From assembly GCA_021323375.2 (NCBI GenBank), contig JAJPCT020000015.1:1-11403 (forward strand): a DNA stretch of 11,403 nt, given 5' to 3'. The stretch is from Candidatus Wolframiiraptor gerlachensis (lineage in GTDB: Archaea > Thermoproteota > Nitrososphaeria_A > Caldarchaeales > Wolframiiraptoraceae). The position numbers and the translations under genes are program-made. Position 1 is the stretch's first letter. Every line of letters begins with the position of its first letter. The notes beneath the pieces are model-generated. The model was not told the DNA's origin and did no database searches. It was given only the letters and a program-made list of their open reading frames with translations. Below, one piece after another: positions 2,151 to 4,274 of this stretch.

Positions 2151-2282
2151 TGGCCGACGAGCTATCGTAGCCGGCCCGGCGGGAACTAACCTTCCAAACC
2201 ACCGTGGATCCATGAACCATGGATCCACAGCGGGAGCGTCCTTCTAACCACCGGCCCTCCGGCTTTTACTGCCCGCCGGCCA
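2151..2282 (-). ncRNA. Structured RNA with a single bridge-RNA/tigRNA-like two-guide internal loop
   Basis: Four nested stems on the minus strand: 2282-2271/2162-2151 (12 bp), 2264-2259/2174-2169 (6 bp), 2254-2248/2182-2176 (7 bp) and 2233-2218/2214-2199 (16 bp, GUU loop). Five pairs are G-U on the minus strand and would be A-C mismatches on plus, which fixes the strand. The last two stems enclose a 14x16-nt loop whose strands are both framed GGTGG-TT-[guide]-..C-CCGC. It lies directly downstream of the IS110-like ORF. Confidence 0.8.
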
Positions 2283-2919
2283 GCATATATCGTCTTTGCT
2301 GCCATGACTTCTTTAAAACTCTTAGTATCTTTATTTCAAGTGTGCGAAGACCTTTATTATTGTTAATTACTTCCTTAAGTAACTCAGTTTTGTTAAAGCG
2401 TTTGCTATTGAGATAGAGATTTACTGCAAGTCTTGAAAGATATTCGCGTAGCTTGTGATTATAGCAGTTATTATCTTTGTATGGTGCTAGGCCCAATAGG
2501 CCTTTCAGCCTTCTAAGCTTCCAATTTAACGGTAATCTTGCCACTAGTATCGCGACCTCAACACTATCCTTGACTCCTATCATATCGCATGCCAGCCTAT
2601 ATATCGTCGCGTAGTTCTCATCATTTTTAATTTCCTTGATTATCTTACGGCCATGGTGTTCGGCTAAGGAGCGAAGCCTTCTAGCACACTCCTTGAAGGG
2701 ATCCGGACAGATCCGCATCCATTGCTGGACAGTCTTCCTCCATTTAACATACCTCTCATACTCTCCGATTAATCTCAATAGGTTTAACTCTCTTAATGTA
2801 AGCTGTTTGAAGTGATTTCTCGGGATCATGCTCAGGAGTTTTGCATCGACCTCATCAGACTTCTTAACCCTATTCTCCTCTGCTGGGATGGCGGTATCAA
2901 TAAAAAATATTCTACTCAT
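2266..2919 (-). CDS. Compact IS110-family/Tas-like protein (partial DEDD RuvC motif, helical linker, Tnp_20/Nop-like C-terminal domain); possibly internally deleted
   Basis: KSDEVDAKLL matches IS110 K-T/S-D-x-x-D-A. LLGLAP...YNHKLREYL matches GLxP...GNxxLR. ATG 2919 follows a GGAGGTGA ribosome-binding site and overlaps the upstream ORF end. The region is visibly more AT-rich than the flanking core genes. Confidence 0.65.
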   Translation of the reverse strand: MSRIFFIDTAIPAEENRVKKSDEVDAKLLSMIPRNHFKQLTLRELNLLRLIGEYERYVKWRKTVQQWMRICPDPFKECARRLRSLAEHHGRKIIKEIKNDENYATIYRLACDMIGVKDSVEVAILVARLPLNWKLRRLKGLLGLAPYKDNNCYNHKLREYLSRLAVNLYLNSKRFNKTELLKEVINNNKGLRTLEIKILRVLKKSWQQRRYMLAGGQ

Positions 2920-3100
2920 GGTCCTCAATCACCTCCTTAAGTTCGTCGCATAGTGTTTTCATCGTTGATTCTCTGATAAATTTCCTAAATGTCTTGGCGA
3001 AATCCTCGATCGTGCCAAGATCCTCGAGGACAAATATCCTGGCTAAGACCCTAGGCAACCGCATCCCCACATATCCCGATACAGCCCCTCCCTTATTCAT
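2912..3100 (-). CDS. Small putative ribbon-helix-helix (CopG-like) DNA-binding protein
   Basis: Only the C-terminal part of ORF 2912..3328 looks protein-like: SGYVGMRLPRVLARIF...TIEDFAKTFRKFIRE fits a beta-strand/helix/helix pattern. It is coupled to the IS110-like ORF (ATGAGTAG overlap). Start is 3100 or 3064. Confidence 0.4.
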   Translation of the reverse strand: MNKGGAVSGYVGMRLPRVLARIFVLEDLGTIEDFAKTFRKFIRESTMKTLCDELKEVIEDHE

Positions 3101-3142
3101 TGAGGGCCATCCCGAAAATGAAGGCCCCCTATCTTGAGGGGG

Positions 3143-3451
3143 GTGAGGTGTCTGGGCTGGGACGAGGAGAGATACGAGATCAGGCATAATGTGGATAAGA
3201 AGGATGAGTAAAAAGATGGAGGTGTGTAAGAGGATTTTCCCGGAGAGTATGAGCGGGATAGACCCGGAGAAGAGGAATATATTAACTATGACGAGAGGGC
3301 TACCGGAGGGGGGAGCCTGATCCGTCATAGTATCTTGAGCCTAGGTGAATTGGAGAAGGCTGCGGAGAGATATTATGTCAGGAAGGCTATCAACGAGATA
3401 CTAGACTACATCATGACCATCGCACTAAACGCTCTCCCAAGAAAGCAGTAA
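3143..3451 (+). pseudogene. Probable decayed plus-strand gene
   Basis: Purine-rich plus strand. Protein-like fragments in two frames (MEVCKRIFPESMSGIDPEKRNILTM; LSLGELEKAAERYYVRKAINEILDYIMTIALNALPRKQ*) end 9 nt before the next ATG (3461) and are interrupted by stops or a frameshift. Confidence 0.35.
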
Positions 3452-3460
3452 GGGGAGGGG

Positions 3461-3745
3461 ATGGATGCTAGGATGATTGTCCTAGCACCAGTCGATGGAG
3501 ACCCTAGGATTCAGGAGTTCGCCTTAAGGCCCCTAATAATCACGACGATTGATAGGAAGGGTAAGATCAAGAAATTCCTGCATATTGAGAAGCATGAGGC
3601 CGCATGTGATCTATGCAGAGGTCTTATAGCCCTTATGAGGAGGAAGCTTGGGGAACGGACTAGGGGTTGTGCAATTATTATGAATGGCCGGCTAGTCCAG
3701 ATAATATGCAGGGAGTGTAGAAAACGGTTCTGGGTGTGGGCTTAA
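3461..3745 (+). CDS. Small hypothetical protein with two CxxC pairs (putative Zn ribbon)
   Basis: CDLC...CREC motifs; G-rich RBS-like GGGGAGGGG directly upstream of the ATG. Confidence 0.6.
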   Translation: MDARMIVLAPVDGDPRIQEFALRPLIITTIDRKGKIKKFLHIEKHEAACDLCRGLIALMRRKLGERTRGCAIIMNGRLVQIICRECRKRFWVWA

Positions 3746-3864
3746 TGAGTATGGATGTCTTGAGGATTCTTGAAGGAGTATGGTAGGTGAAAGGCGGAGG
3801 CTCTTACCACTTATGGACTGGGTAGCGGGAGGAAGCAAAGCTAGGTAAGGGGGTCACGGATAAG

Positions 3865-4068
3865 TTGAAGAGGATGGGGTTCAGGATACCTACCATGTTA
3901 GAGATCTGGGATGAGCATTGTATCGAGAAGAACATCTATTTCATAGACTCGTCGGATAGGATCTATGTGGCAAGATTAAGATGGAGATGTGCTGTCTTGA
4001 AGGCCGCAGAAGGGGAAACACTAAAAGAATACTACCTCGAGACAGCCGAGATAAAAGGGGGATACTAA
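3865..4068 (+). CDS. Hypothetical protein or gene fragment
   Basis: 67-aa ORF, co-oriented with the upstream ORF, TTG start, no recognisable motif. Confidence 0.3.
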   Translation: MKRMGFRIPTMLEIWDEHCIEKNIYFIDSSDRIYVARLRWRCAVLKAAEGETLKEYYLETAEIKGGY

Positions 4069-4097
4069 AACCTCGCGTTTATTGGGTAGCAGTCCTC

Positions 4098-4112
4098 ATA
4101 AATCTTAAAATA
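4098..4112 (+). promoter_or_regulatory. Putative BRE/TATA promoter of the tRNA gene
   Basis: ATAAATC-TTAAAATA, with the TATA-like box at 4105-4112, about 26-33 nt upstream of tRNA G1 (4138). Confidence 0.6.
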
Positions 4113-4137
4113 AAGCATCATTAGATTCATTATTTGA

Positions 4138-4274
4138 GCGGCCGTCGTCTAGCCTGGAAAGGATCAGTTCAAAGATCCACGGAGGGACGCTGACCCCAGG
4201 GGGGCGGAGGCCTTCCGAATACTACAAGGTATGAAGAGAGCCAGCGGTCCCGGGTTCAAATCCCGGCGGCCGCA
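4138..4274 (+). tRNA. tRNA-Gly(TCC) with three introns (4160-4184 at 21/22; 4193-4209 at 29/30; 4218-4238 at 37/38); CCA not encoded
   Basis: Exons 4138-4159, 4185-4192, 4210-4217 and 4239-4274 join to GCGGCCGTCGTCTAGCCTGGAAGGACGCTGGCCTTCCGAGCCAGCGGTCCCGGGTTCAAATCCCGGCGGCCGCA (74 nt). Cloverleaf: acceptor GCGGCCG/CGGCCGC, D stem GTCT/GGAC, anticodon stem CTGGC/GCCAG, loop CT-TCC-GA, T arm CCGGG-TTCAAAT-CCCGG. Intron 3 has a strict BHB (CTTC/GAAG, bulges CG|A and AG|A). Introns 1 and 2 have relaxed BHBs, each with one G-A mismatch in the central helix. Confidence 0.93.

Follow-up and report, generated by a model that had tools for sequence, protein, structure and literature searches.

How a tRNA gene comes to be interrupted several times is a question that the 11,403-nt window analysed here (Candidatus Wolframiiraptor gerlachensis, contig JAJPCT020000015.1) raises in an unusual form. 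Its tRNA-Gly(UCC) gene has three introns and lies near a structured RNA whose variable loop fits the intron-less form of the same gene. The locus bears on how archaeal tRNA genes gain non-canonical introns and become split; a 2026 census of Asgard tRNA introns describes the arrival of introns as an open question (10.64898/2026.10.13.758758).

The tRNA at 4138-4274 is real, with an Rfam score of 32 bits against a gathering score of 29, while ARAGORN missed it. It carries insertions at 4160-4184, 4193-4209 and 4218-4238 (introns 1, 2 and 3), placed as the sequence-only reading had stated.

The variable loop of a structured RNA fits intron-less tRNA-Gly(UCC)

The guide RNA gene (2141-2283, minus strand) contains the stop codon of the recombinase gene (2266-2268). 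The RNA is built of stems P1, P2a, P2b and P3. Of its internal loops, the one between P1 and P2 is conserved, and a single one is hypervariable. The hairpin folds at -64 kcal/mol (z -3.2), and an equally good fold was obtained in none of 200 shuffles. The stems are paired in 96.3 % of 626 pair cells with compensatory change in 14 of 30 pairs, compared to at most 42 % and at most 4 pairs when the stems were slid as a control. Covariance model R1 yielded 88 non-overlapping hits across 99 related loci, nearly all of them just downstream of the protein match, and about 27 copies of the guide RNA are present in the genome to which the window belongs. Rfam returned no match at 2141-2283 even at E ≤ 5.

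Read on the minus strand, the strands of the variable loop are AGAAGGACGCT (2245 to 2235) and TGGAAGGTTAG (2196 to 2186), and they do form the two sides of one internal loop, as had been proposed. The left guide, AGAAGGACG-CU (2235-2245), is the 5' strand; it reads in the sense of tRNA positions 18-28 and matches 10 contiguous nucleotides of the spliced tRNA-Gly 5' half. The right guide, UGGAAGGUU-AG (2186-2196), is the 3' strand and is complementary to positions 27-37, including the anticodon UCC. In IS621 the LTG pairs with the bottom strand on the left and the RTG with the top strand on the right, both spanning the core (PMC11208160), and the rule had been used earlier in the form in which it is published. 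Applied to the loop strands it gives AGAAGGACGCTAACCTTCCA, which is identical to intron-less tRNA-Gly(UCC), GGAAGGACGCTGGCCTTCCG, at 16 of 20 positions and compatible with it at 19 of 20 when G-U wobble is allowed. This intron-less form is a real allele, found in the sister genomes G034 and G023.

A scan of both strands of the 1.28-Mb genome returned 101 sites with at least 14 identities, among them one further 16/20 site and sixteen 15/20 sites, and by identity alone the match is not beyond chance. With wobble, none of the best 10 of these 101 sites, ranked by identity, exceeds 17/20. The 20-mer match becomes significant through the covariation of guides with neighbouring tRNA-Gly(CCC) and tRNA-Gly(GCC) genes and through the comparison with empty sites.

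Empty alleles bracket an insertion at the predicted core

In both sister genomes the intron-less tRNA-Gly(UCC) lies directly beside nadE with the 20-mer target intact. The nadE flank (window 980-2078) is 93 % identical in G034 and 81 % identical in G023 and leads there straight into the tRNA, and homology to the window picks up again at 4238. By homology alone the crossover is bracketed by 2078-2097 on one side and 4138-4238 on the other. Comparison with these alleles finds the core CT at both junctions. On the guide RNA side, a displaced and degenerate 5' half of the original tRNA-Gly(UCC) (2072-2096, plus strand) ends in CT at 2095-2096 and is followed by a 44-nt element tail (2097-2140), 3' of the RNA on its minus strand. 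On the other side, CT at 4190-4191 (plus strand), covered by both guides, joins element-borne and chromosomal sequence within the working tRNA gene. The displaced half is badly decayed, and its global alignment with the G034 5' half (window 2071-2097) reads GGCGGCC...AGAAG..CT with indels. Its AGAAG suits the first A of the left guide, which the GGAAG of the working tRNA does not.

On this comparison the stretch 2097-4189, about 2.1 kb, is one copy of a multi-copy insertion element that has recombined into tRNA-Gly(UCC). The sequence-only reading had taken the element not to be inserted in its site, which the empty alleles and the displaced half show to be wrong: the 1.9 kb between the near end of the guide RNA and the tRNA are taken up by the body of the element, which includes the tRNA promoter and 5' half.

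Because 2097-4189 sits between the two CT-bounded tRNA parts, the promoter, the 5' half and intron 1 of the working gene are attributed to the element. The promoter region (4071-4137, plus strand) has no homology to the upstream flank of the empty alleles, which continues from nadE, and 4098-4159 shares 82.5 % identity with the corresponding sequence next to tRNA-Gly(CCC) in a further copy, C5. The replacement 5' half (4138-4189, plus strand) supplies positions 1-26 and, as the empty alleles indicate, intron 1. The remaining 3' part (4192-4274, plus strand), with introns 2 and 3, is chromosomal and is homologous to the empty alleles from 4238. In another genome, G022, a remnant element copy lies beside the same tRNA and its guides do not fit tRNA-Gly.

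Guides covary with the flanks of other copies

Covariation of guides with tRNA identity was borne out elsewhere in the family. The guides follow the anticodon in three tRNA-Gly genes, UCC in the window, CCC in C5 and GCC in the locus pair L089/L096, and in both C5 and L089/L096 the strand equivalent to the right guide changes with the anticodon; other loci match tRNAs for Asp, Gln, Pro, Ala and Arg. We scored the complement of the guides within 600 nt after the RNA at 44 unique loci with at least 300 nt downstream and took expected counts from cross-locus pairs. The flank beyond the element matches the complement of one guide with a score of at least 9 at 23 loci (1.88 expected) and of at least 11 at 8 loci (0.09 expected), while sense-strand controls stay at expectation. 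The tail between the RNA and the matching flank measures 33-528 nt at the other loci (median 225).

Both target halves lie on the expected sides at L024, L026, L114 and L089/L096; the first three are non-tRNA targets split across the two element ends, and at many loci the target is found as one half only. Opposite-strand pairing around a shared core recurs in C5 (CT), L089/L096 (CC), L024 and L026. Inspection by eye of 11 copies from the window's own genome revealed no evident shared core of 2-3 nt between the loop strands in 7 of them.

The tRNA-Gly(GCC) case repeats the comparison of empty and filled sites. In L096, segments 1-1796 and 6442-7426 correspond to the two flanks of the tRNA at an empty locus of the same genome (C12), and the same is true of L089. 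In both loci the RNA is followed after about 45 nt by the decayed remains of a tRNA-Gly 5' half, in antisense orientation and together with the old promoter. This decayed half fits the left guide at 9 of 11 positions, compared to 8 and 7 of 11 for the working genes. Taken together, these observations support an action of the RNA like that of an IS110 target-binding loop, with two guides for opposite strands sharing a CT core.

The associated protein is a distant IS110-like protein

The recombinase gene (2266-2928, minus strand) is followed directly by the guide RNA, an order shared by nearly all loci examined. The window copy lacks about 70 residues of the N-terminal domain and covers only positions 84-295 of the 295-position profile, whereas intact copies have 286-299 aa. 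It is probably inactive, judging from this internal deletion, and for any movement the element would depend on intact copies at other places in the genome. About 138 unannotated homologs occur in thermophilic Nitrososphaerota, and the two sister genomes with the empty allele carry the family as well (9 matches in G034 and 4 in G023).

The protein appears to be a distant relative of IS110 recombinases. Weak matches to PF01548 occur in 16 of 29 members at E ≤ 1 (best 0.002), and the next family is matched by 3; none of the 29 reaches the curated PF01548 cut-off of 29 bits, and PF02371 is absent from the 25 families listed for them. The family has a KSDExDA motif and shows little or no variation at residues D8, D50, D92 and D95. 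Of 30 feature hits in the ESM Atlas, 23 belong to IS110 clusters at 0.95, and the Atlas structure search aligned the overall fold across residues 4-290 with a 100 % PF01548+PF02371 cluster (TM 0.62/0.57 over 251 residues). Comparison by hhalign with three genuine IS110 proteins was collinear and not significant (E 0.18, probability 0.33), and no sequence relative was found in the PDB. The three genuine proteins share P-R-x3-S-G, with the SG motif conserved after G..P; we take the serine of this motif to be the catalytic one. In the present family, on a weak alignment, some 5 residues lead from the conserved GLTP to RYNHRLR with no conserved Ser. The serine-bearing segment thus appears to be missing or not conserved.

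Upstream of the recombinase gene, ORF-A (2912-3328, minus strand) is conserved among copies only in its C-terminal ~75 residues, and tblastn finds copies of it beside the recombinase at other loci. A repeated left module (3300-4070) contains two small plus-strand ORFs (3461-3745 and 3865-4068) and is similar by blastn to other copies up to 4070. Neither ORF-A nor these two ORFs match a Pfam or NCBIfam family.

A proposed insertion mechanism and its alternatives

We propose, with a probability of about 0.78, that the locus holds an RNA-guided, bridge-RNA-like insertion element that entered a tRNA-Gly(UCC) site and repaired the gene with its own 5' half. The element would encode a small divergent IS110-like recombinase followed directly by the structured RNA, and the two guides of one variable loop would define a target of about 20 bp, one of them by pairing with the bottom strand to the left of a 2-nt core, the other with the top strand to its right. 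For the window copy this predicts positions 18-37 of intron-less tRNA-Gly(UCC) as the target and CT, at positions 27-28, as its core. Directed by the RNA and catalysed by the protein, presumably through a circular intermediate, the element would recombine into the target at the core. Its promoter and replacement 5' half would then abut the chromosomal 3' part, restoring a working chimeric tRNA gene, and the original 5' half would be displaced to the far end and decay. Because the element end copies the left half of the target, the same left guide could read donor and target, which may be how the donor end is recognised. We identified no second programmable (donor-binding) loop in the structured RNA, and no joint spanning a circle junction was seen in metagenome contigs.

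The alternative that survives best, although we consider it improbable, is a conventional integrase that uses a copy of the tRNA 5' half as its attP, as in pNOB8-type elements and the 2012 Caldiarchaeum model, with an RNA that is unrelated or mirrors the att site. A displaced tRNA fragment and a rebuilt gene are its classic signature (PMC3293823), and the copy of the target's left half at the element end means that a homology-based att site exists. SSV- and pNOB8-type tyrosine-integrase elements likewise enter tRNA genes, rebuild them and leave a partial tRNA duplicate at the far border (PMC3293823); both the rebuilt gene and the duplicate (2072-2096 in the window, and the remnant in L089/L096) are seen here. 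Against this, Pfam and NCBIfam reveal no integrase or other known recombinase domain in any ORF of 2097-4189, and the sole conserved protein looks IS110-like. The loop-flank match in 23 of 44 loci includes non-tRNA sites where the element has no copy of the target, and the guides read opposite strands around a shared core in the style of an IS110 target-binding loop. Unlike in the tyrosine-integrase elements, the crossover lies within the tRNA body or at its 5' end and would be set by the RNA loop.

Very unlikely, in our view, is the earlier proposal of a free-standing RNA-guided homing nuclease beside its target, which would cut intron-less alleles and spread with the linked, self-immune intron-bearing allele. 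It accounts for guides that fit the intron-less form, for a resident site broken by introns 1 and 2, and for intron-less alleles in sister genomes that carry the family. The empty-site comparison contradicts it and points to recombinational insertion at the predicted core with a chimeric repaired gene: the element lies exactly between the target halves, the displaced half ends in the core, and the promoter and 5' half of the working gene are foreign to the empty allele. The same architecture occurs at tRNA-Gly(GCC), whose target has no intron, and at the three split non-tRNA targets, and the protein resembles recombinases of the IS110 kind.

Least probable of all is a guide RNA of the H/ACA or C/D sort that acts on the tRNA itself, in its modification, processing or splicing, with the protein as RNP partner. 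In its favour, the hairpin has an internal pocket of two strands, one of the guides could pair with the tRNA transcript, and IS110 recombinases and Nop5 are reported to be related (10.1101/2024.06.21.599552). Against it, the second guide reads in the sense of the tRNA and so cannot pair with the transcript, and there is neither an Rfam match nor an ACA box where one would normally lie. Many targets, moreover, lie outside RNA genes, and the copies behave as an insertion sequence with empty sites.

Relation to known elements

IS1111-type (seekRNA) elements have the RNA downstream of the gene, and the same order is found here. The proposed element further resembles IS110 elements in pairing a small DEDD-type recombinase-like protein with an adjacent structured RNA, in guides that covary with the insertion flanks, in a core present at both junctions, and in loop strands that read opposite target strands around a 2-nt core, CT both here and in IS621 (PMC11208160). 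It differs in falling below the PF01548 threshold in every member, with PF02371 absent from the listed matches, and in the size of the protein (about 290 aa, compared to 342-377 aa in the three genuine IS110 proteins) and the apparent loss, on a weak alignment, of the serine-bearing segment. Further differences are the single programmable loop with the other internal loop conserved, longer guides (about 11+11 or more), and the spare tRNA half and promoter that rebuild the split gene. In a 2026 mining study, loci were chosen for their PF01548+PF02371 architecture, a filter that the family would not pass.

Sugahara et al. (2012, PMC3293823) described the closest precedent by anatomy, an insertion sequence of 1,868 bp at tRNA-Thr(GGU) of Caldiarchaeum subterraneum, a thermophilic archaeon that is related to the host of the window and belongs to the same phylum. 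There, about 1.9 kb separate a tRNA 5' fragment from the rebuilt gene, tRNA position 27 marks the end of the insertion, an extra intron (24/25) sits in the element-borne half, and the multi-copy element has an ORF of about 270 aa that was guessed to encode a recombinase; we liken this ORF 'b' to the present family by description, not by sequence. One genome of the same order, a single 1.7-Mb contig (G059), has 8 matches to the family. The 2012 paper proposed a pNOB8-type integrase mechanism, and the part of it available to us describes no RNA, guides or link to IS110. Intron gain through the element and protection from further invasion were already proposed there, and what is new here relative to that part is the RNA guide.

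Nop5/C-D box sRNPs and TIGR-Tas, as far as described in the parts of the sources available to us, share the presence of two guide stretches in one bulged RNA region, and the serine-bearing part is reported missing from Nop5 as well (10.1101/2024.06.21.599552). The protein is possibly of the same deep lineage. Unlike those systems, the family conserves DEDD-like acidic residues (D8, D50, D92 and D95) in a mobile unit, its two guides read opposite DNA strands, and no K-turn boxes were seen.

Introns, target immunity and what the element may generate

Compared to the intron-less empty alleles, the tRNA gene of the window acquired two introns along with the insertion, one borne by the element and one at the junction. 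Intron 1 is missing from the alleles of G034, G023, G028 and G022, and 16 of 19 positions agree between it and the P3 hairpin of the guide RNA (shuffle p ~0.0045). Intron 2 starts one nucleotide past the core, which simple core exchange does not explain; among the alleles compared it occurs only in occupied ones (the window, G022 and the CCC gene of C5) and is absent from G034, G023 and G028. Intron 3 lies at the canonical position, and since an intron-3-like sequence is also present in the empty allele of G028, it is not tied to the element.

The regenerated target is interrupted by introns 1 and 2. Intron-based target immunity is plausible but unproven; the target without intron in the GCC case counts against it. 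We also entertain, as a tentative and on balance doubtful extension, that such elements generate disrupted archaeal tRNA genes and that the protein is a bridge-recombinase relative that lacks the serine and works with a single loop, conceivably a living intermediate between IS110 and Nop5/C-D proteins. Elements of this kind would import introns, as with intron 1, and leave orphan tRNA halves able to seed split tRNAs. They would also create selection for introns at or beside the crossover, as with intron 2, because the repaired gene would otherwise recreate the target.

The system is compact, unannotated and thermophilic, a protein of about 290 aa with a 145-nt RNA that would represent a single-loop relative of the bridge recombinases; it bears on the evolution of RNA-guided systems and might find use as a tool. 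For archaeal tRNA genes it offers a testable route to introns and fragments. Because the insertion site would be named by a short RNA loop, it can be read from sequence and the process becomes predictable genome by genome, so that target positions predicted from the guides may be compared with intron positions in each.

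Insertion into an intron-less tRNA-Gly gene

The window comes from a 1.28 Mb archaeal genome of 27 contigs and, by the gene family of the element, the closest relatives are MAGs of hot-spring Nitrososphaerota belonging to two genera, Geocrenenecus and Wolframiiraptor. Ordinary genes border the region, namely an NAD synthase (1229-2056, minus strand) and a GHMP-kinase/galactokinase-like gene (from ~4231). The region itself contains a structured RNA (2141-2283, minus strand), a putative recombinase ORF without family assignment (2266-2928, minus strand), a partly conserved upstream ORF (2912-3328, minus strand), a repeated 'left module' of the element extending up to 4070, and a tRNA-Gly(UCC) gene (4138-4274, plus strand; 32 bits with Rfam, missed by ARAGORN) with insertions at 4160-4184, 4193-4209 and 4218-4238 (introns 1 to 3). 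The small ORFs at 3461-3745(+), 3865-4068(+) and 2912-3328(-) have no Pfam or NCBIfam match and are found again in other element copies. A weak C/D-box sRNA-like sR14 match in the left module (3263-3309, plus strand; 17.6 bits vs a gathering threshold of 38) is probably due to chance.

The sequence-only reading held that the element is not inserted in its target site, and proposed either a free-standing RNA-guided homing nuclease or introns gained in defence against the element. Two genomes of the same genus contradict the non-insertion by carrying the empty allele. In both G034 (flanks 93-95 % identical) and G023 (81 %), the equivalent of 980-2078 continues unbroken into an intron-less tRNA-Gly(UCC) gene that has GGAAGGACG-CT-GGCCTTCCG, and homology to the window picks up again at 4238. 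In the window, this flank ends with GGCGGCC...AGAAG-CT (2072-2096), a decayed tRNA 5' half that stops at the core. The region upstream of the present tRNA gene (4071-4137) is foreign to the empty alleles and resembles the region beside the tRNA-Gly(CCC) gene on another contig of the same genome (C5), a gene bordered by a sister element with the same layout. The element therefore spans about 2097-4189, its junctions marked by CT at 2095-2096 and 4190-4191, and the working tRNA gene is chimeric, joining a promoter and 5' half brought by the element to a 3' part from the chromosome. Since the element sits between the two halves of its target, we judge the nuclease reading to be wrong.

Homology alone brackets the crossovers to 2078-2097 and 4138-4238, and the core predicted from the guides falls inside both intervals. 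Both junctions of the filled allele are bridged by contigs of independent hot-spring metagenomes (4 DNA runs; X3 records 17 and 23). No clean empty-site or circle joint was found in the contigs of the 4 DNA runs, which were mostly from other tRNA genes or copies.

In the sister genome G022, a remnant element lies alongside the same tRNA-Gly(UCC) gene, which there has only the junction intron (locus L146, contig C90, reverse strand, ~4680-5190). Its loop strands look aimed elsewhere, the reverse complement of the left strand resembling the 5' end of a Glu/Asp-type tRNA, and its displaced half ends with GACGCC, not GACGCT. These features may reflect recombination between elements.

Match between the guides and their target

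Both loop sequences, the left guide (2245->2235) and the right guide (2196->2186), are exactly as first described, and the rule by which they were read, established for IS621, agrees with the available text of PMC11208160. The predicted 20-mer AGAAGGACGCTAACCTTCCA is, as had been stated, identical to the intron-less tRNA at 16 of 20 positions, and reaches 19/20 with G-U wobble because the three differences in the right half each place a guide U opposite a target G. The one remaining mismatch arises because the displaced original half has AGAAG, which the left guide fits better than it fits the present tRNA gene. A genome scan by identity finds other sites (one unrelated at 16/20, sixteen at 15/20). 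Of the 101 sites having at least 14 identities, the 10 best by identity stay at or below 17/20 with wobble counted. Identity alone is thus unremarkable and the match therefore needed independent support, which exists. The proposed RNA-guided targeting of the intron-less tRNA is supported by the empty alleles, which carry the target, and by the covariation of guides with flanks.

A guide RNA family with a variable loop

About 27 copies of the guide RNA are found in the genome of the window using nhmmer. In an alignment of 21 copies, the four helices have 96.3 % of 626 cells paired with compensatory changes at 14 of the 30 pairs; sliding the partners by 1-3 columns as a control leaves no more than 42 % paired and no more than 4 compensatory pairs. 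A covariance model run on 99 loci fetched through protein matches yielded 154 matches that reduce to 88 non-overlapping ones, nearly all directly downstream of the protein match; weaker matches on the opposite strand echo the hairpin. Conservation extends over the stems and the P1/P2 internal loop, inside which the recombinase stop codon lies, while both strands of the inner loop vary from copy to copy. We conclude that the guide RNA is a real and widespread family with a programmable loop.

An H/ACA-like or K-turn hairpin was rejected: ACA is missing at the proper distance, GA pairs do not occur on both strands, and Rfam gives no match. As for the P1/P2 loop as a reader of the donor, the start of the left module TTTTAGTA pairs at 7/8 positions with UAGUAAAA; the sequence has low complexity, however, and the real border in the window lies elsewhere. 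The window's genome also contains a MITE-like mini-element of ~110 nt (contig C17, 14093-14203), in which 50 nt of left module are fused to the final ~57 nt of the RNA gene. The flank that follows it is the same flank that fits the right guide 13/13 in locus L119.

The putative recombinase is IS110-like

Intact copies of the recombinase have 286-299 aa, one of them being the 299-aa product of C1 65542-66441 in the window's own genome. Its 138 relatives among 5.8 billion proteins are all unnamed or 'hypothetical' and without Pfam domains. Family matches (E<=1e-10) occur in 30 of the 76 genomes of the host class and in 7 of 15 genera, with 29 in the window's own genome when fragments are counted. 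Invariant or near-invariant positions include D8, D50, E59, a K-S-D-E-x-D-A motif (D92, D95), S198 and a G-L-T-P ... R-Y-N-H-R-L-R stretch.

Matches to PF01548 (DEDD_Tnp_IS110), all of them sub-threshold, occur in 16 of 29 members, the next family reaching 3. A feature search in the ESM Atlas puts the protein close to IS110 clusters (23/30 matches at 0.95), and a structure search in the Atlas aligns 251 residues (4-290) with TM 0.62/0.57 to a cluster that is 100 % PF01548+PF02371. Profile-profile comparison (hhalign) with three genuine archaeal IS110 proteins is collinear and not significant (E 0.18), PDB sequence searches with the single protein and the profile find no relatives, and PHROGs and NCBIfam searches give nothing useful. 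Genuine IS110 proteins have a P-R-x3-S-G segment, presumably the site of the catalytic serine, whose counterpart is missing from the family in a weak, non-significant alignment. On this evidence we regard the protein as IS110-like by fold and by context, short of demonstrated IS110 membership. The copy in the window matches profile positions 84-295 only, lacking ~70 residues of the N-terminal domain, and so is probably inactive.

Guides match the flanks of other copies

Guides match flanks beyond the window as well. Of 44 unique loci whose downstream sequence was long enough, 23 have the complement of one guide at a score of 9 or more in the 600 nt that follow the RNA, against 1.88 expected from pairing guides with the flanks of other loci. 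At a score of at least 11 there are 8 loci compared to 0.09 expected, and the sense orientation of the same guides stays at expectation. The downstream flank is read by the left strand in 15 loci and by the right strand in 8. At least 6 of the 23 matching loci are in or at a tRNA gene, a lower bound from a simple finder. This signal emerged only when the search was confined to the predicted strand and side with cross-locus permutation; single-guide matches within +/-6 kb of own-genome copies are at about chance level by hand estimate.

General targeting of tRNA by all copies was rejected. Comparing 11 own-genome guide pairs with 35 tRNA genes, exact-word matches are clear only for the copies on C15 (the window), C5 and C7, with a T-arm-like match for C17, and only 4 of 27 own-genome RNA copies have a listed tRNA within 2 kb. 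Both halves of non-tRNA targets are found on the predicted sides in three loci (L024, L026, L114).

Guides do covary with tRNA identity, three matching guides being found for three glycine isoacceptors (UCC, CCC and GCC). The right guide of the C5 copy, UCGGGGG-A-GCCAG, tracks the CCC anticodon. tRNA-Gly(GCC) offers an empty locus in the window's genome (C12) and two filled metagenome loci (L096, L089). In the filled loci the right guide UUGGCAGGCCGG agrees at 12/13 positions with the antisense strand of the working gene over positions 27-38; ~45 nt past the RNA comes a decayed tRNA-Gly 5' half in antisense, and then what is left of the old promoter. The left guide matches this displaced half at 9/11 positions vs 8/11 and 7/11 for the working genes. 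Further copies are found 70-410 nt ahead of tRNA-Asp, Gln, Pro, Ala and Arg genes, with the left guide complementary to tRNA positions ~3-13 (per-locus shuffle p 0.003-0.02). An attL/attR model, with a second full target copy at the far element end, was rejected as none was found in L094 or other loci.

Several further observations concern individual loci. The same position upstream of orthologous tRNA-Gln genes is taken by one element in L070/L095 and by another in L094, and the L070/L095 guides (TTTTTGGAGCC + GGTCGTCT) fit the 5' junction of the L094 tRNA-Gln, TTTTTTGGAGCCCGGTCGTCT, not that of their own locus. At two own-genome copies (C3 33114-33125, where it covers the start codon, and C1 65216-65226), the complement of the left guide falls at the beginning of the protein-coding gene that follows; insertions may occur at gene 5' ends more generally. 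Intron-rich tRNA genes at C1 63509-63643(-), which lies 52 nt after an element RNA, C8 13234-13331(-) and C25 66646-66783(+) were missed by the Rfam-based scan and recovered by a simple T-arm/acceptor finder. A tRNA-Glu-like 3' part (T arm and acceptor) preceded by unrelated sequence at the end of contig C17 (129690-129884) may be an orphan or split tRNA half.

Introns and possible target immunity

Intron 1 lies within the element-borne half and is missing from all four other alleles (G034, G023, G028 and G022). Its sequence GTTCAAAGATCCACGGAGG is identical at 16/19 positions to the P3 hairpin of the guide RNA (2199-2233, minus strand), GTTCATGGATCCACGGTGG (mononucleotide shuffle p ~0.0045, both strands). 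This likeness suggests that intron 1 may have derived from the guide-RNA gene. Intron 2 begins one nt past the core; the occupied alleles have it (window, G022 and the C5 CCC gene), and the three empty ones lack it. The occupied alleles are related, so its presence does not amount to three independent events. Reading intron 2 as a footprint of the element ends was rejected for want of convincing similarity, and the motif ACCCC..GSGGA is found in tRNA context in C15 and C5 only. Intron 3 is at the canonical position. The empty G028 allele holds a similar sequence, so intron 3 is not linked to the element.

Introns 1 and 2 interrupt the target that repair would otherwise recreate, which fits the idea that introns may confer target immunity. 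The GCC case speaks against it: there no intron breaks up the restored site, whose departures from the left guide are mismatches alone.

The junction intron of the C5 tRNA-Gly(CCC) gene (13401-13421) contains CCCTAGAT, a motif also seen in the conserved 3' tails of several elements (TTTTACCCTAGATTTAAG; C5 ~11480-11500, L070, L069). Many right guides start with YTAGA.

Proposed mechanism and relation to earlier work

The simplest reading is IS110-style RNA-guided recombination at a 2-nt core. What sets the element apart is its cargo: the end abutting the remaining tRNA carries a promoter and the missing tRNA part, and the essential gene thereby survives. This cargo-bearing end mimics the left half of the target; donor and target thus have the core and one half-site in common, and a single programmable loop might read both alike. 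That the family protein catalyses the reaction, that the RNA guides it and that it passes through a circular intermediate is inferred from analogy and from covariation.

According to the available text of Sugahara et al. 2012 (PMC3293823), Caldiarchaeum subterraneum has a multi-copy 1,868-bp insertion with the same anatomy as the element in the window. It is bounded by a 5' fragment of tRNA-Thr on one side and by position 27 of a rebuilt tRNA-Thr on the other; the element-borne half of the rebuilt gene has an extra intron, and an 813-bp ORF in the insertion was guessed to be a recombinase. The authors proposed pNOB8-type integration, intron gain via the element and protection against further invasion. 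Added here are the two-guide structured RNA, the IS110-like protein, guide-flank covariation and the intron-less empty alleles of a triple-intron gene. In a literature search of limited reach, we found no paper tying the Caldiarchaeum element to IS110, bridge RNA or seekRNA. A 2026 bridge-RNA mining study, in the text available, picked loci by a Pfam architecture that the window's family does not show. With the element in the window, ideas on how archaeal tRNA genes became disrupted can be put to a direct test.
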